A stretch of 61,198 nt of DNA, counting the filler, from Squatina squatina (Eukaryota): NCBI GenBank assembly GCA_031763465.1. It is 3 parts of 3 records of this genome, joined end to end, with 100 filler letters (N's around TTAATTAATTAA, not from the genome) between each part and the next. Parts side by side here need not be neighbours in the genome. Positions count along the whole stretch, not along the records: positions 15,057 to 45,588 come from JARFOE010000100.1; 2 more parts are not named here. One strand, 5' to 3'. This document shows positions 13,013 to 48,464 of this stretch, in pieces. The translations under genes and the position numbers were made by a program. The notes under the pieces are model-generated. The model saw nothing but the letters and a program-made list of their open reading frames with translations. It was not told the origin of the DNA and did not search any database. How positions within the stretch are numbered: position 1 is the stretch's first letter; each line of letters begins with the position of its first letter.

Positions 13013-15000
13013 NNNNNNNNNNNNNNNNNNNNNNNNNNNNNNNNNNNNNNNNNNNNNNNNNNNNNNNNNNNNNNNNNNNNNNNNNNNNNNNNNNNNNNNN
13101 NNNNNNNNNNNNAAGCTGGAGCGCATGTGTCAGGACATCAGATGAGGACAGCATCGGGCTCAGCTGTGATGGCTTTCGTGGTCAAATAGCCCGTCTACAC
13201 TCTGCACTCACGCACGGCCATTTGGCAAAGTTACCGTAAGACAGCCATATGTGGAAGCATATAACAAGTGGAATCATTGTCTTCAGGGCAGGAACAGAGA
13301 AAGTGGAGGGGGAAAAAAAAATGCAGAAATATGCTCTGTTGGGTACTATAATGTGTTTTGCATGACTGAATTTTCCCACAAAAAGCAGACTGCGAGAGGT
13401 AGTTTAATCACCAATGATAAAGTAAAACTGTAAAATAATAACTAAACAAATGATAGTCGGATAGTATTGTAGCCTGAATAATGATCTGTTGAAAACATTA
13501 AGCTTCAACCGGTTAACTTTTCGAGTTTAGAAATCAGCACTGGCCAAAAAAATCTTTTGTCAGCTAAAGCTGTAGACAGGAATCAGCTTTTAAACAGTTA
13601 CTTCCACATTACCATTACAAGCCAAAAGGTTTTAGCCGTTTCCATAGTGGTCTGGAAGAAGGATGGTGAAATTCAATATACACAGGTTCAACTAAGGTAT
13701 TATTTAATAAAAATTCGCAGTGTCAACAGAAGTCTGAAAGACTGAGAGTGAGGGAAGACAAAGTGATACAGGAAAGCAGGAGGCTACAGAGGGAATGACA
13801 ACAAAACCTTGAACAGACCCCCGATCTGGAGGCCATTTTAGTATCTATGTGATGCAAGCATTTAACGTGCTTGGTTCAGCTGTCTAAACATTAGGTGCGC
13901 TCTGTTTAGTTTTCACTTTTGGATAATGGAATTCTTGGTGATTTGTCATCCATGCATCATGTTTGGATCATAGACTCCAAAGTAAAAGCTCACCACAGAC
14001 ATTTTTGCTATTTGCATCACTGCAGGATGTGAGTATTCTATAAACAGGATGTAGGTATTCTGAACAACAGAATGGGGTAAACATTTTCCGGAANNNNNNN
14101 NNNNNNNNNNNNNNNNNNNNNNNNNNNNNNNNNNNNNNNNNNNNNNNNNNNNNNNNNNNNNNNNNNNNNNNNNNNNNNNNNNNNNNNNNNNNNAGCAGCA
14201 CACGTTTGAAGACACAGGGAGAGATTGCATCCGATCCACTGTACTCTAGAGAACAGGGGATTCGATAAACTTGGTGTGGATAAAACTTGATACTGGCCAT
14301 AAGGAAGGGATCTCGTTATGAACTTTATTGAGTTTAGGAATTCAGGAGCAAAATGAGACAAAAAGTCAGCTTTCTTTTCAGGACAGAAAAAGTGCAGAAA
14401 GGAGGATTTGTAGGCGATATAAGAGACAAACTTGGCAAGAGGCCAGAAGAAGCAGCTGCTGGGAAGGCAGGAAGACAGCAGTTGACGTATCCTTTCAAAA
14501 ACATTGTGTTTGGCAGATCTAATGGTGAATTTTCAGAGGTTACAAGGAGGCTTGAGATGCTTCAGAGTGATCAAGAGGCCAGGTGCAAGAGGCAGAATTT
14601 TACAGGAGACTGCAGAATGGTAGGCATGATTGATCCAAGGTGCAGTACTGGATTTGATGGAAAGGGAAGAATAAAGGGCATCAGCATTAACTTCACTGGC
14701 ACAGATTGAAGACTCAGAAGAATAAAAGCAGCAATTAATCCAGAAAAAAAGCAGCAAAGAGTTTGCAAAGGCCATCCCAGCTGGACAAAAAAGGAGCTGA
14801 CTGCTCTGTGATTAAAAACATCCACTGATTGACAGTAAATCTGGAATGTCAGTCTTTCCCCATGTGGGTAGATTTAATGTATGCTTAGCCAGCACATACT
14901 CATTCATCTGCTAAGCGGGTGGTCTTCAAATCACTTTTCCAAACTCGACACTAACGNNNNNNNNNNNNNNNNNNNNNNNNNNNNNNNNNNNNNNNNNNNN

Positions 15001-15012
15001 TTAATTAATTAA
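15001..15012. other. Artificial scaffolding linker TTAATTAATTAA
   Basis: Palindromic 12-mer with stops in all six frames, centred in 44 N + 12 + 44 N = 100 bp. Confidence 0.92.
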
Positions 15013-15829
15013 NNNNNNNNNNNNNNNNNNNNNNNNNNNNNNNNNNNNNNNNNNNNGTGAGAGATTTGCAACTGCATTCCCAACTTCAAATTCAGAGCTT
15101 TCATTTCAACGACAGCACCTCATTCTGAATTGTAGTTTTGTAAAAAAAAATTTATAAAGCTCATTCCTAAAGATCAATTTAAACCGCACATCATATTCAA
15201 TGTCGCTGACAGGTGTGCATTTCTGGTTTGGGTTCAAATCCAATTTGCATGATCTGAAACCAAAATAATAAAAACTTCAGGTGCATGACATCTTTACTGG
15301 ATATGACCCCGCACCAGTGGGCAACACAAATTGACAAATAATTGAAAATCTCCCTTTACTTAATCAGAAATGGTGAGTTTCTGGCTTCTGATGATTCATC
15401 TGATCAACAAATTCTTAGCAGGTCTCGATTATAAAAAAAAAAACTGTTTTTCCATTTTAAAAAACGGTGTGTAAAACTTTTGCTGATCTCCTGGACCAGA
15501 AGTCCTAATTCACACTGGCATTTTTTTTTCCACGTAAAGCAAAATATCAAGAGCTCCATGCATAGCAATTTTACCACGTACTGGACATCCAAGCAACAAC
15601 TACTTATGCTTCTAAATTAACTAAGAATCAATGAAAACATTCATTAAAATGTTCAATTTCATTTTCGTTGATTTGCGCAAGCGCCCCCAACTTCCACAAA
15701 AATTCCAGATAATTACAAGTGTGGACAATGAAGGACCAATGTCCAAGCAGCCATTTGAACTGCAAATGAAAGTGAAGAATTATCTTCACATATGCACTGT
15801 CAGGAACAGGAATTTATAGCTGTACTTAC

Positions 15830-17025: not shown

Positions 17026-17153
17026 CTATAACAAAAAAAGAACAAGTGTGGNNNNNNNNNNNNNNNNNNNNNNNNNNNNNNNNNNNNNNNNNNNNNNNNN
17101 NNNNNNNNNNNNNNNNNNNNNNNNNNNNNNNNNNNNNNNNNNNNNNNNNNNTG

Positions 17154-19277
17154 TTCCTTTCCATCTGCACTGTCCAAAATGGGACTCTGTTGTCTTTGGC
17201 TGGATACGTGTGGACTCTGGATATTTAAATTTTCCACCTCAGAGCTTTCAACAGTTTGCAGGTCCTTGTCACCTGTTGGATCAGATGACAAAGTACTGTC
17301 TGGTTCCTTATTTTCAGGACTTACTTTCTGACAGCTTCTTTCATCTATTCTCTCTGTATCTGACAGAGACTTTCTACTTTTTTGAGAACTGGGTGCAACC
17401 CTAACTGGAGAGGATTCTGAAATGTCTGAATCGGTTTTGTAATCATGTTTCTTTTCACTAGAAGACACTCCATCAGGGCTTTGCATTTCTTCAGGAGATA
17501 TCGGATTTCCATATATTGTACCACATGAAGTTGGGCATTGGAGTTGCTCTTGTAAAGGACTATGACTCCTAGAAGGGATCTTCCCAGTACTGTCTGCAGG
17601 ACAAAGCGTCCTTTTTTCATCTGATGATTCGAAGTCTTCAAACCTCTCCTCTTCTTTACCATCTGGACTTCCTCTCCCACTATTGGTATATGAGCACAAT
17701 GGCGAAGTCTCTGAATTAGATCCTTTCTTCTCATGCCTGTGCAGTGATGTAGGCTGTTCTAAATCAGAACCAGGCTTATCATTATTCTGTTCTTCACTGG
17801 ATGTTGATGAGGATGACGAGGACGATGACGACGATGAGGAAGAGGTAGTGGAGGAGGAGGATGAGGAAGATGAGGAAGATGAGGTACTGGACGATCTTCG
17901 TCTTGAACTTTTAGAAGAGTTTCTACTCCTATCTTTTTTACTATTCCCTGAATCAAGATCTTTACATTTCGATTCTTCATGACTGACAATTGCAGACAAA
18001 TCTTTCTCAGAACTTGTGGCAGAGCAGGATAGAGCTCTACTGCTTGTGGAATGAATGTTTTCAGGCCAATTTTCTTTTCCTTGGTCAGAACTTGGTTCTT
18101 GGGTGTCTTCTTCCTGCACTGCAGAGGTTTTACTCTCTTCGAGACAATCTGGCAGTACCATTCTGCTTTTATGAAAATCAGGAATTTCATTATTGGATGA
18201 TCTGGGACTTTCTGACTCTGATTTGTGCACTTCTCTTTCACTTGAACAGGGCGAACCATCAGGTTTTTGTTGCTGGGCTCGAGGAGTACATTCACGTTCA
18301 TCACCTCTAATTCTTGAAGAGGGACTTGGAGATTTTTGCTTTGTACTTTCAGGGCTATTATTTCTGGAACATTCTCTAACAGAGCTCACTGCAGACTGTG
18401 TTTGTTTTCTATAACTTGGCGACCGGGTGCTTGGCTCATTACTGTCTGGACTTTCAGAAGTATTCCCTCTCCCTTGTGTAACAATACATTCTTCTTTCCT
18501 TCTCCCTGGGTCAGTTTCCACTAATTTATTGCTTTTCTGAGAGTCATTTCTGACACTTGAAGAATGTGAATCAGGACTCTTTGAACTTTTAAAATCTTCT
18601 CTGTGGGGACTACGTGATGAGCTCTCAGATCTTCGATTTCTGCCATCTCTGCTTTTCTCCTTTGATTCAAGACTCGGATGGAATTGCCTTGACTTTGAAG
18701 GGCTATAGTTTCTAGAATGTGTTCGACGTGTACATTCTTCTAGCGGTAAACTCCTGTTACAGGCTGGACGCGTGTCCTTAGATATTCTCTTGTCCCGACT
18801 CTCTGGACTTCTTCTGTGGCTATCAGCTTTTTCTAATCTACTACTAAACTTTGAAGTACTAGCCTCTTTCCTTGATGACCGACGAGGACTTCTGGAACTG
18901 GACCTGTATTCCCTCCTTTGTTGTCTGGGAGAAGAACTATTCGATTTTCTTCTGTGTCTTCTATTCCTATCATCCCCAATTTTGCTCCTTGAATCTGGGC
19001 TGTATCTTCGCCTCTCCTGGGGACTACGGCTTCTTGAAGGTTCCTTCCAAGAGCTCTCTGGAGAGCGTCGTCTTTTGTCACTCTCTGGAGAGCGTCGTCT
19101 TTTGTCACTCTCTGGCCTTCTATCCTTTGACCAGCCCAGTTGTTTGATATCCAAGCGTCTTTCTTCTCTGATGGTAGGTTTTTCATCCCTTCTTTCTCGA
19201 TCAGATATCCTTAGTCGATGGTCCCCATGTGAGAGAATTCTATCTCTTCTCTCAAAGTGGCTTTCCTCTTTTCTCCT
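17154..19277 (-). CDS. Large exon fragment encoding an Arg/Ser/Pro/Glu-rich low-complexity region, probably part of CWC22
   Basis: 708 uninterrupted codons spanning the whole contig and open at both N gaps. RS/RSP dipeptides, many SP sites and a poly-Ser tract. Same strand as, and adjacent to, the CWC22 exons. Coding status is well supported; the gene assignment is inferred. Confidence 0.75.
19054..19115 (-). repeat. In-frame 27-bp tandem duplication (PESDKRRRS x2.3)
   Basis: CTCTCTGGAGAGCGTCGTCTTTTGTCA is identical at 19054-19080 and 19081-19107, followed by a partial third copy. Confidence 0.95.
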
Positions 19278-19377
19278 NNNNNNNNNNNNNNNNNNNNNNN
19301 NNNNNNNNNNNNNNNNNNNNNNNNNNNNNNNNNNNNNNNNNNNNNNNNNNNNNNNNNNNNNNNNNNNNNNNNNNNNN

Positions 19378-19545
19378 CAGCATCTGTGAAGAAAGAAACA
19401 GTTAACGTTTCAGGTCGATGACCTTTCATCAGAACTCTGATGAAGGCTCATCGACCATAACCATTAACTTTGCCTGCCTCTGTATCTGCTTAAAACCTGT
19501 TGCATCTCTTAACTTTTTCCAGTTCTGATGAAAGGTCATGAATTA
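19378..19545. mobile_element. Penelope-like element terminal-repeat relic with inverted arrangement
   Basis: Three copies of a CTGATGAA(A/G)G...TCAT motif: one on the minus strand (19400-19436) and two on the plus strand (19437, 19525). Inverted/partial terminal repeats are typical of Penelope-like elements. Confidence 0.55.
19400..19436 (-). ncRNA. Minimal type I hammerhead ribozyme-like motif
   Basis: Minus strand AGUU-CUGAUGA-A-AGGUC-AUC-GACCU-GAAA-CG-UU-AACU. It has both catalytic boxes, a perfect 5-bp stem II, a 4-bp stem I and a palindromic AACGUU in place of stem III. Confidence 0.6.
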
Positions 19546-19967
19546 AGAATCAATCTTTGATTCTGCAAATTTCATTGTTCCACATATTTTAGAACAAACA
19601 TCATCGAACATTTAAAGAAAATCCCTTCTACAGGTATAAAGGAAAGGATTTGCAAACTTTGAGAAGCGGAAAAGGTTTTTCTGTACTCAAAGGATTAATG
19701 GTCAATTTTCGCAAATCACTTATTCACATGTGAATTACTGCATTGACATAGAATAAAATGCTAATTTTACATTGTGAGTATTCATGGTATGAACTCACTG
19801 TGTTCTCCTCCAGCATATTCCGTGCTGGAAACATTCATGATGTGATGTGATTGTTATGATTTTCAGGCTTCATCAGATATTTCTATTATGTTCAAACAAG
19901 GAGCACTTCAGTGAGTGAGCCCTTACTTCCTACAAACTAAAGTGTGACTTTATACATTATTGAACGT

Positions 19968-20536
19968 GTCCTTGAACATGTTGTCGCCTCCCAAATCCGT
20001 GCCCATCTTTCCCACAACTCCATGTTTAAATCCCTCCAATCAGGTTTCTTCCCCTGCCACAGTACTTAAGTGGCTCTCAAAGTCACAAATGACATCATTT
20101 GTGATTGTGACCAAGGTTAACTGTCCCTCCTCATCCTTCTTGACTTGTCTGCAGCCTTTGACACGGTTGACCACTCCATCCTCCTCTAACGCCTCTCCAC
20201 CGTCATCCTGCTGGGTGGAACTGCACTCACCTGGTTCCATTCCTATCTATCTAATCGTAGCCAGAGAATCATCTGCAACGGCTTCTCTTCCCGCCCCCGC
20301 ATTGTTCCCTCAGGTGTCCCCCAAGGATCTATCTTTGGCCCCTCCTATTTCTCATCTATATGTTGCCCCTTGGTGACATCATCCAAAAACACAGCATCAG
20401 TTTCCACATGTACGCTGTCGACACCCAGCTCTACCTCACCACCACTTCTCTCGACCCCTCCATGGTCTCTAAATTGTCAGACTGCTTGTCCGACATCCAG
20501 TTCTGGATGAGCAGAAATTTTCTCCAATTAAATATT
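19968..20536 (+). mobile_element. L2-clade LINE RT fragment
   Basis: LDLSAAFDTVDH, GVPQGSIFGP and MYAVDTQLY motifs spread across shifted frames. Confidence 0.88.
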
Positions 20537-20636
20537 NNNNNNNNNNNNNNNNNNNNNNNNNNNNNNNNNNNNNNNNNNNNNNNNNNNNNNNNNNNNNNNN
20601 NNNNNNNNNNNNNNNNNNNNNNNNNNNNNNNNNNNN

Positions 20637-21615
20637 TCGGTCGCCCGCTGCCTGGGCCTATTGATGGCCAGCCTGACCAGGCCCAGGAGCAGAACCACGA
20701 GGAGGGCCTCCGACTGGCCCGCTCTCCCCTGCACCAGGTGCCCAAAGGTCAGGAGCGTGGGACTGAAGTGCAACCAGAACTTGAGGAGCAGCTCCCTCAA
20801 ATAATTAGAAGAGGGGCTGCAACCTCACACTCAACATAAATGTGGAACATGGATTTCTCCAAGCCGCAGAAATTATGGGTGACCTGGGAGTCTGTGAACC
20901 GACTTAAAACCTTGTTGCTCAGGACTGCTCCGTGCAACACCCTCCAGGCCAAGTCCCCAATAAACAAGGGGGTGACTCCCACATAGAGAGACCTCCACTG
21001 GGGACCCCCGCCTCCTCCAGACCGCAAGATGGTATGCCACGGCATGTCCGGATGGCAGACGAAGATGACAAAATGGAAGGTGTGCAGGAGCATCCCATAC
21101 AGGAACCCACTCTGCGCGGAACAAAAGGGCAGGGAGCGGCATTCCCGGAGGTGGCTCAGGTTATGAGGCGCCGGCACCCGAGGGAGGTTTCAAGACGCGG
21201 CGCCGATGAGGAATTCTGGCCGGACAGGGTCAGTTCGGACGGGATCGCCCCACGTGCTTGAGCCTCCTCGACACACCTGGTGGAGTCAGGGCCCTGTGCC
21301 ACTTTAAGCATCTCGATGGCTTTGTCTGTGAGTCGGGTGTCAGCCCAGGACAGGCACTGTGCCAGCTCCTCCGGTGACATCCAACCCGCTTCATCGCCAT
21401 CGAGGAGGTCCCGGACTCTGGTCACCTTGGCAGCCATAGTCCTACCCTCCTTAAACCGAACCACATTCGGCCACATTATACCGAAGTCGTGGAGGTGCGG
21501 ATTCTTGAGCAGCGGCTCCTGAAGGATAGCTACCGCTCCCGATGGGGGAGAACTGCGCCTGCAGCTGGCCTTGTTCCAAACCCTTAGCAGTTGCTAGTAA
21601 AAGACAGGCAGAACT
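20637..21615 (-). mobile_element. Tx1/L1-clade LINE ORF2 C-terminal fragment
   Basis: GDLAWRVLHGAVLSNK...NFCGLEKSMFHIYVEC resembles the zf-RVT / C-terminal zinc-knuckle region. GC-rich and frameshifted. Confidence 0.8.
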
Positions 21616-26100: not shown

Positions 26101-26312
26101 CCTTTCTTTAAGGCTCTAATGAAAAGCAAAATTGAATGGGCTATAAAGCAGGCGGCCAATCGCTGTGGTCTATTTCCTGCCTGGCAGGAAGAGTTAATAT
26201 CGCCTACCACCAGCCTCCCCCCCCGGCCACCCCCACCCCCCAATATCTCTCCAGTGGAGTTCTTGACAAGAGCTGCACAACTTATATTCCAGTTTAGTCA
26301 TATCTAATGGTA

Positions 26313-27007
26313 GAGGGCGAAATTCGGCCTATTTTTTCGCCCCGCTAAGAGGGCACAAATGCAAAAAAATAGCACTGGGAGGCAGCTATCTCACCTCCCG
26401 GGAAATTCCCCAGTGGGTCCTTGAGGCACAAAGGCCCTTGCGGCTTGCCCAGGGAATTTCGTGGCAGGTCGGCGCGCAACATCATAAAAGTGCGCGCCGA
26501 ACCCATACCACGCAACCACATCGACTTACCGCACCCTCTGCGCCCTGCAGGTGAAATTCCCTCACAGGTTACGGCGGCCACGCTGGTCGGGCCCCATTAA
26601 AGGGGAGGGCCGGAGCACCGGCGGCCGCCATATTTAATCATCGGCCAGCTCTATGATCGGCCGATTCATGGCGGCCCACACCCCCGACTGGGCAACCATC
26701 TGTTCGCCTGGCACACCAATTAGCATGCCAAGCTTATGGCCCAGTCACCAAGGTCCCTTTGAGGGAGGGAGCGCACCATGTCTGACGTCAGTGCACTGCA
26801 GCACAGGCGCACCACCCTGACGTTGTCAGAGAGGCGCTGACATTGTCAGAACCATGCTGGCAACGTCCGGGGCCGTACGCCCCAGTACCACCCAGGGAGC
26901 GAAGTGGATATTGCTCCGCCTCACTCCCACTGCAGTACGGGGAATACCGCAGGGGTGTAGTTGCAGGAGCCAACGATAAAACTGCTGGCTCCCGGAATTT
27001 CGCCCCC
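26313..27007. mobile_element. GC-rich PIF/Harbinger-like MITE
   Basis: TIRs GAGGGCGAAATTC and GAATTTCGCCCCC (12/13 match) enclose a CpG-rich non-coding interior. Confidence 0.65.
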
Positions 27008-27104
27008 ATAGTATAAGCTCAAACACAAGCCCACTGGATACTCAGCTATACAATGTGCAAGTTTGTCACGATAAACTTTGTGATTTATCACTCCACATTA
27101 TTTA

Positions 27105-27161
27105 AGAGCATAAGAAATAGGAGCAGGAGTAGGCCATACGGCCCCTCGAGTCTGCTCCATC
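27105..27161 (-). mobile_element. CR1 LINE 3' tail fragment
   Basis: AGAAATAGGAGCAGGAGTAGGCCATACGGCCCCTCGAG has the same tail as the CR1 at 35255. Confidence 0.8.
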
Positions 27162-31759: not shown

Positions 31760-32075
31760 GGCAGAAAAACAGTAGGTCAGCATCATCTGTCACAAGAACA
31801 CAGATGCTTTGATGTTTCAGGTAGAGACCCTTCCTCAGAACTGAGATATTATAGATGAACAGTATTTAAAAATGGTTCAGTGGCCAGGACAGTATTCTGA
31901 CTTGATGTGGGAGATCCCATCCCCGTTCCAAGAAATAACCTGCTCACTGGAAATGCTGGCCCATTTTATCCATCTGATGAAAGATGCCTGTCCAAAAAAC
32001 ATCATGTGTCTATTCACTTCTCAGATGCTGATAGGTATGCTCTGTATTTCCATTAGTTTCTGTTTTTATTTCGAT
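31760..32075. mobile_element. Degenerate palindromic Penelope-derived repeat with a second hammerhead-like motif
   Basis: Left arm on the minus strand reads GUU-CUGAGGA-A-GGGU-CUCU-ACCU-GAAA-CA-UC (31806-31843). The right arm starts CTGATGAAAG (~31974) and ends in ...TTTCTGTTTTTATTT, inverted relative to the left arm. Confidence 0.5.
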
Positions 32076-32442: not shown

Positions 32443-32876
<434 letters not shown>

Positions 32877-35254: not shown

Positions 35255-36870
35255 AACATAGATAATAGGAGCAGGAGTCGGCCATTTGGCCTCTCGAGCC
35301 TGCTCCATCATTCAACATGATCATGGCAGATCCTCTAACTCAACCCCATTCTGCTGCTCTCTCTCCATTTCCCTTGATGCCTTTAATATCGAGGAATTTA
35401 CCTCTTTCTGTCTTGAATCTACTCAATGACTGAGCCTCCACAGCCTTCTGAGAGAGAGAATTACAAAGATTCACCACCCTCTGAGTGAAGACATTTCTCC
35501 TCATCTCAGTCCCATATGACTCACCCCTTATTCGGAGACTGTGACCACTAGTTCTAGACTCCACATACAGGGGAAACATCCTCGCTGCATCTTGCCTATT
35601 GAGCACTGTATATTTTTTTTACGTTTCAAGGAGCTCACCTCTCATTCTTCTAAACTCTAGAGAACTACAGGCCTGTTCTACCTAATCTCTCTTCATAGTA
35701 CAATCCCACCATCCCAGGAATCAATCTGGTGAACCTTCGTTTCACTCATTCTATGGCACGTACATCCTTTCTTTGCGAAGGACACCAAAACTGTACACAA
35801 TAATCCTTAGATAAGGACACCAAAAATGTACACAATACTCCAGGTGCGGTCTCACCAAGTCCCTATATAACTGCAGTAAGACATCCTTGCTGCTGTACTC
35901 AAATCCTCTTGTAATAAAGGCCAACATATCATTTGTCTTCCTAATTGTTTGCTGCACCTGCATGTTAGCTTTCAGTGACTGGTCGACTCGGACACCCAGG
36001 TCCCTTTGCACATCAACATTTCCTAATCTATCATCATTTAAAAAATACTCTGCCTTTCTGTTTTTCCCACCAAAGTGGACAACTTCACATTTTTCGACAT
36101 TATACTGCATCTGCCATGTTTTGCCCATTCACTTAGCCTGTTTATATCACCTTGAAGCCGCTTTACATCCTCCTCACAACTCACATTCCCACCTAGTTTG
36201 GTGTCATCAGCAAACCTGGAAATATTACATTTGGTCGCCTCATCCAAATCATTGATATAGATTGTGAATAGCTGGGGCCCAAGCACCGATCCCTACTAGT
36301 CACTGCCTGCCAACCTGAAAATGACCCGTTTATTCCTTCTCTCTGTTTCCTGTTTGTTAACCAATTGACAATCCATGCCTGTATCTTACCCCAAATACCA
36401 TGTGCTCTAATTTTGCACACAAACCTCTTGTGTGGGACCCTTACAGAAAAAGCTCTCTGAAAATCCAAATACACCACATCCACTGGCTCCCCCTTATCTA
36501 CTCTGCTGGTTACATCCTCAAAAAACTCCAGTAGATTTGTCATACATGATTTCCCTTTCCTAAATCCATGTTGGCTCTGCTTGATCTTGTTATTGTTATC
36601 TACGTGTCCTGTTATCGCATCCTTTATAATGGACTCCAGCATTTTCCCTGCTACTGATGTAAGGCTAACGGGTCTGTAATTCACTGTTTTCTTTCTCCCT
36701 CCTTTCTTAAATTGTGGGGTTACATTTGCAACTCTCCAATCTGCAGGAACTGTTCTAGAATCTATAGAACTTTAGAAGGTGACAAACAATGCATCTAATA
36801 TTTCGAGAGCCACCTCTTTCAGAACCCTGCGCTGTAGATTATCAGGTCATGGAGATTTATCGACTTTCAG
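35255..36870 (-). mobile_element. CR1 LINE ORF2 (RT) plus 3' tail, 5'-truncated and frameshifted
   Basis: NYRPVSLTSV, QHGFRKGKSC, DVVYLDFQRAF, LGPQLFTIYIND, RFADDTK and LVRPHLEYCV motifs in successive minus ORFs; ~35-bp internal duplication at 35778-35840. Confidence 0.95.
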
Positions 36871-39025
36871 CAGAATACTGTCACCATCAGTCCAAGAACA
36901 TGGAGTTTGTTGCCTTTGTTGTATTCACTGAGATGTATGCAGGCACTGCTATGGTAATAATCGCTTCCCTGGTCCTTGCACGCAAAAGAAAACTGTTTGA
37001 CATCACTTAGTTCCGGAGAGACCTTGTATCACTGGGGTCACCAGCCAGCGTTTCCCGGATATCTATCTTAGTGTTGTCTACTCAACACTCTTAACACTGA
37101 TTTGATCTCCATTCGCAGATTTGCCACTAGACTGTGCCGAGGGTTATTTCATTCGGGCATCAGTGGGCAAATTGGATCACTTGTTCTGAGGGTTGGGAGT
37201 AACTGATTTCAAGGCCATTGGACTGTAAATAAGTCCACCTGACATACCAACGGACTTAAATTATGAACCATATAGTCAACATATTGACCAAACAGTAGCT
37301 ATCCAATGAGTCTCCAAGGTTGGACTCTTCTTTGTCCAAATCCTTTTGAATACGGTCAGTTTTGCTTGCACATTACAGCTAGTTCCATAGCTTAGTGAAA
37401 TCAGTAATTTTTGTAGTCTTAACAAGTACTTTCCTCTATATCCGTTTATCTGCATTGTGAATAAAGGAGCCATAACTCCCTAGCGATCTCCACTCATGGC
37501 TGACCCAGGTTGAGCTTTTATTTTTAGTTGCAACCAGAGGTTTTGTATTGAGCTATGTTTTGATACAATTAGCTAATTAGTCATAGTTCATAATCCTTTA
37601 ATCTTTTAAGTTTAGCATAAGTGTGTGTATTTGATTCCATATGTCTATAACCTCACTGTTGGCCATTTGTGGCTGCCGCTTTGACAAAATTGCCTTTTAA
37701 CTTCAAGGACAGCCTTTGCACTGTCGTGGCAGTCACCAGCAATATTGGTTACATTTTCCATTTGTTTTGGCGTTTTTTCCCCTGCGTATTCATGCCATCA
37801 ACTCTGTATGCTATTGTACACTTGCATGGAAAAGTTAAGATTTCTATCTTGAGTGCAGTGAAACTCTCCTAGCTTTGCAGAAACTTGTAGTAGACTCAAA
37901 GCATTGATCTAGACCTGGGAGGTAGAAATAGCTTGCCAGTAAGGCATATTGACGGCCTGCACTTGAATTCAAAGCCACGAGTGTGACCTGACCACTTGAG
38001 TTTATGCAATATTAAGTCTAAGTTCTATGCATAGAATTGGGATTTGTACTACGTTGTTGTCATTAACTGAACATACTTTATAAATATACATACGAATCAG
38101 ATAGGGTTGCTGGGGATTGGGTGAGAGGGAAACAAACACTACCTGTTTTCTCCTTTACCAGAATCTGAGGCCAGACCTTGCCTGGATTGTGGGTAAACAG
38201 ACTACAGTTCTCAAATTGTTAATAAGGGGCCATGAGCATTGTTCTGGCATTCCTTAATGACAAAATGGAAGGACGAGTTGTCCAGCAGGCAGACAGGCAA
38301 TTAATTGGTCGCTGGAATCTTGCAGTTACACTTGCTGGACCTGTTGTGCAGTCCTGAGAACCAGAGGCCAGGACTTTTGTGTAAATTAAACATTAAAGAT
38401 GGAAAAATGGCAAATACAGATTTTAGGAACTGAATTAATGCAATAAATGGCCTTGGCAATCTTCCTTACTCAGCAGGTATGGAAAGAGAAGTTTTATGAT
38501 GGGCGATGTGATGCATTCTTGAGAAGTCAAGTACAGCAAAAATATGTTTTGTTTGTAATGTTACATTAGCAATTATTCCCTTGAAAAGAAAATATATTAA
38601 TTTGTAGGGTTGAAGGTCACAGTATACCATAAAACCTTGAAAGCAACACACAAACTATTTTCCATTGTCTTTGGCCCAGGCATGCCTATTTGCAAATAAT
38701 GCCATAAGTTAAGTTTTGACCTGCTTTTATGATCTACTTTTATGTCATTGTTCCTTTTGAAAATTGGTATTTTTGGAGGTGTGTCTCAGTCTCTAGTAAT
38801 TTCTCTTTGACTTGTTTTTGAAAAACATTTTTAATGGTGTCCTATGCAACACTGCTGCTAAATTGATGAAACCTCATTCATTTCATGCGTGCATTTGGTG
38901 GGGAAAAAAGTGGTACATGAAGAAATACATCAAAAGGGAATGAGGGAACTGGTGGAGAAGTGAATAATACACATCCTTACATTTTTCAGCTTTGGCTTAT
39001 TCGTTCATTTCTTTTTGTTTCACAG

Positions 39026-39123
39026 CGGATCCTCTAGTTGGGAGCATAGCAACTCAATATTTGACCAACAGAGCAGAACATGACAGGATAGCCAGACAGT
39101 GGACCAAGAGATATGCTACATAA
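39026..39123 (+). CDS. UBE2E3: Ubiquitin-conjugating enzyme E2 E3, last coding exon
   Basis: TTTCACAG acceptor, (A)[38 protein letters not shown] and DRIAR distinguish UBE2E3 from UBE2E1/E2 (YMTN, DRMAR); synteny with CWC22 agrees. Confidence 0.97.
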
Positions 39124-43566: not shown

Positions 43567-44049
43567 ATTATTTTTATTGATCATAGAAAAACTTGCTTTT
43601 TATCGTTGGATTCTGCCTTAATCATTTTCTATCTGATCTCGGTGATCCTTCAATCTGGTTTGGATGAAACAGTACTAAATCTGCGTCATCCATCCTGGTA
43701 AGCATTTGTTCAGCGGGATGTTTATTTTCAAGTTTTAATGGGAAAGTTTTGTTATTGTGGTGAGGTAAAGATACAATTAACCGCAACACGAAGCTCAAAG
43801 GCATCATCATAGGATCTGGAAGATGTTATTTGTGATTCCAATTGATTGTGAGATAAAGCTCACAGATGCCCCCAACTGGACTCCAATATCCGTTTAAGTT
43901 CAAATCAGGCAGTAGTACACTCCTAAAACTTTGTGTCCAATCTGTTATTAATCAAAATCTGTTATATCAACATACTGCACTACTTTCACTGCTGCTGCTC
44001 TTCTACCTCTTACTCTTAATCAGGATTTTGAAAACTCAGATACTATTAC

Positions 44050-45060
44050 AGTGCAGTACGCAGATGACAGTTCCATGTGTGCATACTCGGAGGCTGAGCT
44101 CCATCGTCAATTCATTTACTGAGGCGTATGAGAGAATGGGCCTCACACTAAACATCTGCAAGACAAAGGTCCTACACTAGCCTACCTCAGCCGTACAACA
44201 CTGCCCCTCGACTATCAAGCTCCAAGACGAGTCCCTGGACAATGTGGATCACTTTCCATACTTTGCAAGCCTCCGTTCAGCGAGTTCTGACATAGATGAC
44301 GAAATCCAACACTTGCTCCAGTGTACCAGCACAGCCTTCAGCCGCTTGAGGAAGAGAGTGTTTGAAGATAAAGACCTCAAACCCGGCACCAAACTCATGG
44401 TCTACAGGGCAGCAGTAATACCTGCCTTCCTGTATGTGTCGGAGATACATGAGTCAATGTACAGCAGGCACCTCAAAGCACTGGAGAAATACCACCAATG
44501 CTGCTTCCACAAAATCCTGCAAATCTACTGGCAGGATAGGTGTACCAATGTCAGCGTCCTCTCTCAGGCCAATATCCCCAACATCGAGGCACTGGTCACA
44601 CTCAACCAGCTGCGATGGGTGGGCCACACCGTCCGCATTTCTGACTCAAGACTCCCGAAACAAACACTCGATTCCAAGCTTCATTACAGCATGAGATCAC
44701 CAGGAGGGCAATGGAATCGCTTCAGGGACATCCTCAAAGCCTCTCTGAAAAAATGTAACATCCCCACCGACTTGTGGCAATCTCTGGCCCAAAACCACCC
44801 AAACTGGAGGAGAAGCATCCATGAAGGCGCCAACCACTTTGAGCTTCTCTGGCAGGAGCACATGGAGGCCAAGCACAGGCAGCGGAAGGCACGCGTGGAA
44901 ACCCGAGCATCCACTCGCCCCATCAAACACCACCTGCCCCATCTGTGGTAGAGATTGTGGATCCCTTATCGGACTATTTAGTCACCTCATAACCCACAAC
45001 TCCGGAGGGGAAACAAGTCATCCTCGACCTCGAGGGACTGCCTAAGAAGAAAGAAAGAAG
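44050..45060 (+). mobile_element. RTE-clade LINE, 5'-truncated, with 3' microsatellite tail
   Basis: QYADD at ~44055, then DHFPYFAS...TKLMVYRAAVIPAFLY...QLRWVGH and a C-terminal CPICGRDC...H motif; ends in an AAG-rich tail. Confidence 0.92.
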
Positions 45061-45632
45061 GGGAGTAACTCTCTGACATCGAACAGTAGACATTTCCCCA
45101 TTTTGGAATACTCAAACAGTGCTGAATTTCCAGCCTCGCCGAGCCTCCCACCTCCCGCCATGCGTCGCCGGCGACCCTGCGCAAATTTATGCCCCTTGCC
45201 TTTAATGACTGGTTTTCCACTCTGTCACAGTTCAAAAACAAAGAAGAGCTTCATTAGCACACTCAATTCATACTTATTTAGGCTCCCATTAACAACGAAT
45301 GGGAGTCGAGAACACAGGGGTATAGGTCATGTGGAGAACCACCAATGAGGCAGGCTTTCATTGAGTCCAGGCAGAACTGCCAGCCACTCAATTTCACACA
45401 AGCGTTGCCAGCAGTAAAAATTTGCTGGGCAAAAAAAAAATCAACCATAGTTAGTCCGAGCAAGATTTAAGTCTACTTCAGTATCAGTTTCTCAAATTGC
45501 AGCAGTGGTATTAACAATCTCAGCTGTGATAACCTTTCGCCCTCTTCTACAAAGAGCAATTACCATTTTGTGCCTGTTATTTTTTCAGNNNNNNNNNNNN
45601 NNNNNNNNNNNNNNNNNNNNNNNNNNNNNNNN

Positions 45633-45644
45633 TTAATTAATTAA
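45633..45644. other. Artificial scaffolding linker TTAATTAATTAA
   Basis: Same 44N-12-44N construct as at 15001. Confidence 0.92.
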
Positions 45645-48464
45645 NNNNNNNNNNNNNNNNNNNNNNNNNNNNNNNNNNNNNNNNNNNNCACACAGCAAAA
45701 CTGACATTCAGTTTGCCCAAAACAATTTATTTTCTGATTGTACTTGACGAACAGAGTGTCACCTTTTTCTGCTCTCAATTCTTCTGAAAGATCGGTGTGT
45801 TCCCCATGGAGACAGAATGAAACCTGTCTTAATGATCACCTTCCTACAGAAGTCAAGAGTGTTTCAGTCTATTTTATTTTTCCCACTGTATTCATTAAGA
45901 ACAAACTCTGCTGTATTGCAAGTTACATTTGCAGCATCCAAGGATACATTTTCATCTAAGATTAAATAATGTTGCAATTAGTAATGATAGAAGTAATAAC
46001 AAAAAGGCAGGATCAGAAGTTCAATTTAACATTCTTAAGCCATAATGCATATTTACTATGAAAACACACTCAAGCACAAAAGCAGTGTTGATGATGCATT
46101 AAGAACTGCCAGAACATATAATATTGTTTGTGTCATCCCGTTCCAACATATACTTGAATTGTTAGGGTTTCTTGTTTCCTTTCTTTCCATTATNNNNNNN
46201 NNNNNNNNNNNNNNNNNNNNNNNNNNNNNNNNNNNNNNNNNNNNNNNNNNNNNNNNNNNNNNNNNNNNNNNNNNNNNNNNNNNNNNNNNNNNNGTATTAA
46301 TCAATCGAGAAATGGCGTCATGATGATTGTAAGGCAAGCGGTAAGTGTAATAAATCATTTATTTGAATCAACAACAGTCACAAATAAACAGAAAAAGTGA
46401 TAGATTTGTGTGTGACTTTTTAATGGATTGATGAGGACTAATGATACTGAAATCTGGATGATGCGGCATTGCAAAAGTGACGGAAAGAACCATCACTTGT
46501 TTAAAGAAAAATCTACAAAAGGTTGCTGAAACCATTCCTTCACTCAATGCGTAATGGTGAATATATCAGTCAAATAAAATCTTGTCATGCTGTCATGTGA
46601 TGCCATATCAGTGTCAGCACTGTCATCATAATGTTTGCATGTCTGCTGTTCCTGTCCTGCAATGTAAACATATTGAAAGAGTCTGTGCCCAAGGGAAATT
46701 TGTTTCAATAAAAAGAGGGCTTGTAGGTAGGTCTTCTGTGAAGTAGCAGATGGATCCCCAGGGGATGCTAATAGCTGTGGTGCCATCCGCAATTTCAGTT
46801 AATCAGCTATCCACCCATTGTTAATACAATAAGTTTTTTTCAGTAAAATATGTTATTTGTTCTCTTGTTTCCTAAAATGGAATTGAAGAAATGACTTGGT
46901 ACCAAAAAACAAACAGTTTAATTTTTGTTGTTAAAATGTTAAATTTGCACAGTTGCATTTATCGTTCCATTGAGCAGTTTTACTTCCCACTGGTGGTAAA
47001 TTAATACACATAAAATGCTCTGAGTTCTTAGTACTTGGCTGGTAAATGGAGTTAATTGACCCATACTTAACCACCCTAATAGCCACAGACTGGATAATTT
47101 TCCCTAATGCTTTATAGCTCAAGACACTGGTTTTCATTAGCTGGATAATACATTCCATTGTTCCTTAATAGCTAAACAATGAGAAATGAGTGCCCAGAGT
47201 TTCTATTGTACAATAAGGAGTAATTTAATTGTACTGAGTGCTATTTCATTCTACTTCATAAGTTTTACATTAAGTGGGTCTGCTCCAATTACATTTCAAT
47301 GTAAATTTTGGAAAGTTGAGTGGTGTTTGAATTGAAGTCTTTAAAATAATAAAGGGATTTGATAGGGTAGATACAGAGAAACTGTTTCAACTGGTGGGGG
47401 AATCCACAGCAAGGGGNNNNNNNNNNNNNNNNNNNNNNNNNNNNNNNNNNNNNNNNNNNNNNNNNNNNNNNNNNNNNNNNNNNNNNNNNNNNNNNNNNNN
47501 NNNNNNNNNNNNNNNNAAATCGGAAACTTCCCGAAATGGTGGAGACCCGGAGCAACTGCTGGTGTTATGGCGGGGGACTGGTGGAACCCCTGAAGAACTT
47601 TGGTCCAAGTAAGTTTGATTGTGAAGTAACGAGTTGACATTCCGTGCTGCATAGTCACAAAATCATTGCAACAGAGAATTGTTCAAGGTTATTTTTGAGC
47701 TCATACTTCTGTAGAAGTCTAGAGACAAATGAAGAAAAATCAACATCACATAATAAGGATGTGTGGACATCTTTTTGCTCTTGAAGGAGACGTTGATTTG
47801 TCAAAGAACTGCGCTGAGTAGCATTCCTTTTTCTCCACAATTACTTCAGTACTGAAGGAATTGAAAATCATATTTTTAGCCATTTACTTCAACTGGAGAA
47901 TCAATAGCATGTATTTTGGCTCATTGTTATGCTCCGCACTGGCTGTTGAGTAACATCCTCACATTCCTGTTAACTTTGATGTTTTATAATTAAAGATTTA
48001 TTCATATTTGTTTGTGTATGAGAGACTTTCTGTTCTTGCCTCTTGGCACTTTTAAATTTAATAGAAGTTTAACAGTCTGCTTGAGCTCAGAGTTAATTTA
48101 AAGCAATTCAAAGATAGATGTCCAATATATTAACAACAAACCTTATGAGGTACAGTTATGTAACTATTCATTTCAAACACTGCTATTTATTAAAATGAGA
48201 CCCAATTTAACTTCTTCATAGTCACCTTCCCATCACAACTTCATCACATCAAATGAAAGAAATGGGCTGTGCAATATCACTGGGACATGCACATCGAAAC
48301 AGTATAACCTCCATTTCTGAACCAAAAAACAATGAAATTACTGGCTTAGATTTTGTGGTAGAAANNNNNNNNNNNNNNNNNNNNNNNNNNNNNNNNNNNN
48401 NNNNNNNNNNNNNNNNNNNNNNNNNNNNNNNNNNNNNNNNNNNNNNNNNNNNNNNNNNNNNNNN

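Follow-up and report, generated by a model that had tools for sequence, protein, structure and literature searches.

Minimal type I hammerhead ribozyme motifs (min-HHRs) were described in the pseudo-LTRs (pLTRs) of metazoan Penelope-like elements (PLEs) by Cervera and de la Pena (2014, PMC4209133); a single motif showed no cleavage, and cleavage by dimers was weak. Hammerhead dimers were also treated by Lunse et al. (2017, via the review PMC6765202). In the Poseidon element PAc of Anolis carolinensis the motif needed the protein of the element, and cleavage was not needed for insertion (Frangieh et al. 2024, PMC11167929). Non-LTR retrozymes, whose type I hammerhead descends from that of PLE pLTRs, were reported in the single chondrichthyan sampled (bioRxiv 10.64898/2026.07.22.740005).

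We analyzed a stretch of 61,198 nt from Squatina squatina (the window), made of three parts of the genome assembly (1.5 Gb in 1.15 million contigs). The motif is situated in the middle part, on scaffold C100, with 22 bases between it and an assembly gap of 100 N. The following features were delineated:

14957-15056 and 45589-45688: joints between the three parts of the window
17154..19277, minus strand: large RS-rich exon of CWC22, outside the element (79% identity to the Mustelus protein over residues 70-768)
19278..19377: assembly gap of 100 N, hiding the rest of the arm A tail and CWC22 codons 1-69
19378..19399, minus strand: start of the downstream segment and tail of the element, entering the assembly gap (family comparison)
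19400..19436, minus strand: arm A, carrying the minimal type I hammerhead of a Penelope pLTR (sequence reading)
19437..19469, plus strand: arm B, an inverted and decayed second copy with a disrupted GAAA box, fused to arm A in head-to-head orientation (family comparison)
19472..19520, plus strand: pLTR piece normally directly upstream of the hammerhead, a pyrimidine tract ending in CCAG (88-94% match to family copies)
19521..19539, plus strand: piece C, a third copy that breaks off in loop II and forms the right-hand edge of the insertion (family comparison, contig alignments)
19538..19960, no strand: unique flank right of the insertion (aligns to contigs of two other organisms)

Our preferred reading, to which we assign a probability of about 0.88, is that the motif is the minimal hammerhead of an abundant Penelope-like pLTR, present here as a probably inactive, lineage-specific insertion stub. 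The copy belongs to a repeated family and is fused head to head with another 5'-truncated copy whose hammerhead is broken.

Compared with the min-HHRs of PMC4209133, the shark family is similar in being of type I with a short stem I, an additional residue separating position 9 from 10.1, a palindromic 15.2-16.2 segment and no stem III, and in occurring mostly as dispersed single copies, with dual motifs on opposite strands. It differs in its 5 bp stem II, in the triplet GUU and in the pair 10.1-11.1, mostly G.U, or else A-U or G-C, where min-HHRs have a conserved G-C; the main text of PMC4209133 names no cartilaginous fish. With PAc (PMC11167929) the family shares a pLTR hammerhead and two reverse transcriptase (RT) start sites defining a tail, and for PAc no RNA ends were seen at the cut site; unlike PAc, it has a Zn-finger linker, which places it in another clade, and its hammerhead is a putative ribozyme. 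Endonuclease-bearing (EN+) PLEs of the Neptune clade (Craig et al. 2021, PMC8557442; Arkhipova et al. 2013, PMC3846280) have in common with it a GIY-YIG domain with CCHH, the linker, an inverted copy and a 30-40 bp tail; unlike in their inverted insertions, the arms in the window measure merely ∼35-135 nt, and the clade was assigned from motifs. The retrozymes of bioRxiv 10.64898/2026.07.22.740005 also have a type I hammerhead of PLE pLTR origin, but they are arrayed head to tail and include two or more complete hammerheads, whereas the window has an inverted stub with one intact core, the same-strand pieces B and C both being broken. The copy at 19400-19436 is thus an ordinary member of the already known min-HHR kind.

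The hammerhead motif and its family

The minus-strand letters from 19436 to 19400 proved exact on re-reading, and the sequence bears out the two catalytic boxes, the stem I AGUU/AACU and the perfect stem II AGGUC/GACCU of the original prediction. Stem I (4 bp) has its 5' side at 19436-33 and its 3' side at 19403-00. The box CUGAUGA occupies 19432-26 and is followed by an extra A at 19425; the 5 bp stem II with its loop (AGGUC/AUC/GACCU, closed by an A-U pair) extends over 19424-12; GAAA is at 19411-08, then come CG, U16.1 (19405) and U17 (19404). The predicted cut site falls between 19404 and 19403, after the GUU triplet.

Arm A has the CUGANGA and GAAA boxes, U16.1-H17, a stem I in the range of 4-5 bp, a stem II, the extra nucleotide between 9 and 10.1 and the palindromic 15.2-16.2. 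The pair G10.1-C11.1, typical of min-HHRs and outside the descriptor, is replaced by A-U. A self-complementary stretch had been proposed in the place of stem III; stem III of a dimer would be ACGU (A15.1-U16.1) rather than AACGUU. The cleavage site had been described as UU and weak; the triplet is in fact GUU, and U occupies position 17 in 51 of 52 sampled copies, making GUU the family norm and not a sign of decay of arm A.

In the whole genome the family pattern gave 884 exact matches (0 for the reversed control), and with the flanks fixed and the 37 central letters left free there were 1124 matches. Variation was assessed in 52 copies picked regardless of the state of the core. Both boxes were intact in 32 of these copies; both boxes and all stem pairs were kept in 13. 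That arm A keeps them too, next to a decayed arm B, counts against our preferred reading, but arm A had itself been selected for intactness. Of its 37 positions, two depart from the majority sequence of the family (N7, C>U, and 10.1, G>A), each by a common variant. The pair 10.1-11.1 was G.U in 35 copies, A-U in seven (as in arm A) and G-C in five; the G-C form had 286 matches genome-wide against 2 for the control. The pair 2.1-1.1 was U-A in 36 copies and U.G in 13. Pairing was kept in three of the three common non-CpG stem variants.

The original prediction had named covariation and excess conservation of the core as checks; neither was found in the 52 copies. There was no two-sided change in the stems except at 10.1-11.1, with A-C seen once where 1.1 were expected. 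With CpG and polymorphic places left out, substitutions numbered 17/468 in the core versus 39/780 elsewhere (Fisher p 0.32). Little covariation is to be expected, because the sampled copies are dead copies of one family; a core no better kept than other places is what neutral decay of dead copies would yield, and speaks neither for nor against function in the parent element. As for a second hammerhead family suitable for covariation analysis, none was seen among 200 listed matches of two patterns (222 versus 102 for the control and 148 versus 209), and these listed matches were mostly indel variants of the shark family or noise. A second subfamily (e.g. L202, L203, L105 and L107) is distinct in the sequence preceding stem I, and C at 11.1 (G-C) is more frequent in it.

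Coincidental agreement with the hammerhead descriptor would fit this absence of covariation, with the folding of the 37-mer by itself, no better than that of shuffled sequences (z −1.1), with the eight matches of a loose hammerhead descriptor in the window, and with the Rfam search of 18000-21000 (E≤10), which returned five weak unrelated matches and no hammerhead. Still, all published min-HHR features but one are combined here at the place expected in a Penelope pLTR, in >1000 copies, and we consider coincidence extremely improbable.

The parent Penelope-like element

Alignment of flanks to PLEs, another check named in the original prediction, revealed coding pieces of RT and GIY-YIG endonuclease (EN) upstream and a Penelope tail downstream; therefore, the motif belongs to the min-HHR class of PMC4209133, in support of the Penelope-type minimal type I hammerhead originally proposed. 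In longer copies the hammerhead is preceded by a ∼270 nt pyrimidine-rich stretch and, upstream of it, by the C-terminus of a GIY-YIG endonuclease. Endonuclease translations of three loci (L055, L020 and L053) have a CX4CxxC linker and a CCHH pattern; the Pfam GIY-YIG match, with E-value 0.007, is below the curated cut-off. RT motifs were found upstream of the endonuclease piece. The RT piece from L067 and the EN piece from L053 are, respectively, 62% and 59% identical to one Rhincodon protein (P0003), which has matches to both RVT_1 and GIY-YIG; L067 and L082, each taken alone, had no Pfam match.

No single locus with RT, EN and hammerhead was found; they are connected through two loci that overlap, L067 and L020, the latter having the linker/EN, the pLTR and the start of the hammerhead together. 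No intact ORF was seen, the RT and EN pieces coming from broken copies. The order of these pieces (RT, then a C-terminal GIY-YIG endonuclease), the 30-40 bp tail, the 5' truncation and the inverted copies are those of EN+ PLEs, and the hammerhead has the pLTR location of a min-HHR. A C-terminal GIY-YIG domain with CCHH and a CX2-5CxxC linker are motifs of the Neptune clade (PMC8557442); the linker and CCHH of the shark family point to a Neptune-like Penelope element as its parent. Our literature search returned no paper on hammerhead-bearing Penelope elements in elasmobranchs or on this shark family, which Repbase, Dfam or supplements may hold.

Where the copies begin and end

The ends were mapped in 100 tail-anchored copies, the first 100 of 1628. 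Of the 86 copies with a readable 3' end, 41 ended at one site and 33 at a second site ∼36 nt further on; judged by sequence comparison, these two sites are the Penelope tail, which has been tied to two RT start sites (PMC11167929).

The 5' starts were concentrated between −10 and 0 relative to C3, with 22 of 100 copies (0.039 per base). Thirty-seven copies started within +1 to +33 (0.013 per base) and seven between −57 and −11 (0.004 per base), of which three look like boundary-call errors; ten copies end at gaps. No cleavage footprint was seen in this sample: one copy starts at +28/+29, the cut site, five start at +26 to +29, and no peak stands out from the 37 ends in +1 to +33. The accumulation of starts within 10 nt upstream of the core, with 1 of 100 at the cut site, suggests that the stubs copy an uncut 5' end of the element RNA, which would be the simplest reading. 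The family thus bears on the purpose of the Penelope hammerhead, the ends piling up at the 5' edge of the motif and not at the cut site. A literature search returned no paper on such a 5'-end pile-up.

A splice acceptor before stem I (pyrimidine tract and CAG, as in D. virilis) was considered as the cause of the pile-up. Three of 54 upstream flanks matched the pLTR, all as its native continuation; the stubs have no upstream exon in common, which argues against splicing. Flanks were also inspected for a cap-derived G before the start. The letter preceding the start, in 66 non-native flanks among the 100 listed copies, was G in 25, A in 25 and T in 16 (p 0.023 versus an assumed 26% of G); inverted junctions inflate the number of G, and in a mixed set of flanks G was found in 11 of 54. 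The letters around −4 (CCAGUU) fit what we take to be the initiator consensus. An Inr-like site in a pLTR has been noted earlier (PMC3846280).

Tentatively, and with more doubt than confidence, these observations could be read jointly: the element RNA would start at the first letter of stem I, at the initiator-like CCAGUU, the stubs would be DNA copies of its uncut 5' end, and the motif would serve as a 5'-end fold of the RNA recognized by the element protein rather than as a processing nuclease. If so, the junction in the window would record two 5'-end cDNAs joined at their ends, and the family, despite its GUU triplet and G.U closing pair, would have reached thousands of copies while leaving no sign of cleavage.

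Separately, three copies (L170, L212 and L249) that start near the cut site resemble one another over ∼20 letters upstream, which suggests that they were fused to another repeat or inserted in one.

The composite insertion and its neighbor CWC22

The inverted arm B and the truncated piece C had not been part of the original prediction. Arm B differs from the family majority at 6 of 33 places. Penelope insertions typically contain inverted copies with 5' truncations (PMC8557442, PMC3846280), and 18 of the 100 tail-anchored copies formed head-to-head pairs. Relative to C3, each of the two arms in the window starts between −4 and 0. We infer that the element RT initiated downstream of the hammerhead, at a site in the tail, and extended its copy as far as the first letters of stem I, and that a second copy of opposite direction was joined to the first at the stem I end.

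Alternatively, the head-to-head unit could be mobile as a whole, a small non-autonomous element of palindromic structure, instead of arising anew at each insertion. The exact junction of arms A and B does recur, at six places in the genome with the window included, along with several near-exact ones, and three loci (L006, L008 and L018) share a common core variant in one arm. However, the junctions of the 18 inverted copies are scattered, ∼2 of them having both arms start at the 5' edge of the motif; the pile-up of 5' ends suffices to make a junction recur; and the third piece is private to the window copy. We regard a palindromic element as improbable and retain the independent joining of truncated copies.

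For RNA read across the insertion, folding predicts a long hairpin (z −6.8). The hairpin would pair CUGAUGA with its mirror image, and therefore neither stem I nor a cutting-competent dimer is predicted to form. With arm B included, hammerhead-compatible folds lie 24.5-29 kcal/mol above the full ensemble, with a predicted stem I probability of 0.0; without arm B they are still placed 7 kcal/mol above it. For the active dimer the predicted nearest-neighbor energy is −9.7 kcal/mol versus −19.3 kcal/mol for the best dimer. All these energies are predictions that ignore co-transcriptional folding and proteins. Arm A is likely to be inactive, as its mirror-image neighbor is predicted to fold over, and thereby sequester, the catalytic core. 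On our preferred reading, cutting in the parent element would require either dimer formation through ACGU or assistance from the element protein.

One further family copy on the same strand, and no other, was found in the window, near 31838, and it is degenerate. This more decayed member of the family (31806-31842, minus strand) has C at position 17, and its palindrome is disrupted; because it is spanned by an aligned contig of organism E, it may represent an older insertion that is shared.

CWC22 is on the same strand as the motif, as originally noted; residues 70-768 of the Mustelus asterias protein, used for comparison, map to 19277-17154. The gap separates the motif from CWC22, whose 5' UTR exon was not located. 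In the contig of one relative, 1341 letters follow the equivalent of 19277 with no listed piece matching 19378-19960; the gap is therefore likely to exceed 1.3 kb. Runs of relatives that we guessed to be RNA gave no cover at 19578-19919, with none of the listed joints leading to a 5' UTR exon, which speaks neither for nor against expression. In two other organisms the contigs that match the flank stop aligning at 19538, the insertion edge formed by piece C, leaving 320 and 757 unaligned letters beyond. The insertion is thus likely absent there and likely lineage-specific, an empty-site reading that depends on where the two alignments stop, the continuing letters of these contigs not having been seen.

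Could the copy have been adopted as a regulatory ribozyme in intron 1 of CWC22, or upstream of the gene, cutting the pre-mRNA at GUU? The motif is on the CWC22 strand, arm A is intact while arm B is decayed, and GUU is among the cleavable triplets (PMC3138052). Such adoption is nevertheless very improbable, given a core predicted to be paired in its context, no intact same-strand partner in the window, an insertion likely absent in two other organisms and an unproven placement relative to CWC22 across the gap. The first three points equally go against the original suggestion that the 19400-19436 copy could act. A role of the copy in CWC22 control is not supported by any observation, and as an insertion stub it would do nothing to the gene. 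Intact-looking hammerhead cores near genes should not be taken as gene regulators.

Shark CWC22 has an RS-rich N-terminal exon of ∼700 codons, the proteins of Mustelus and Stegostoma being 1809-1812 aa long; the gaps 17052-17151 and 19278-19377 hide further coding sequence of the gene. A CpG-rich region at 26157-27156 (observed/expected up to 0.83), which no read links to CWC22, is a possible promoter or repeat. Segments 32443-32570 and 38968-39123 (plus strand) we take to be exons of a UBE2E-type ubiquitin-conjugating enzyme gene, divergent from CWC22; the two genes adjoin in human too. Fragments of presumed LINE reverse-transcriptase frames were seen at 19948-20536, 35751-36771 and 43857-44951.
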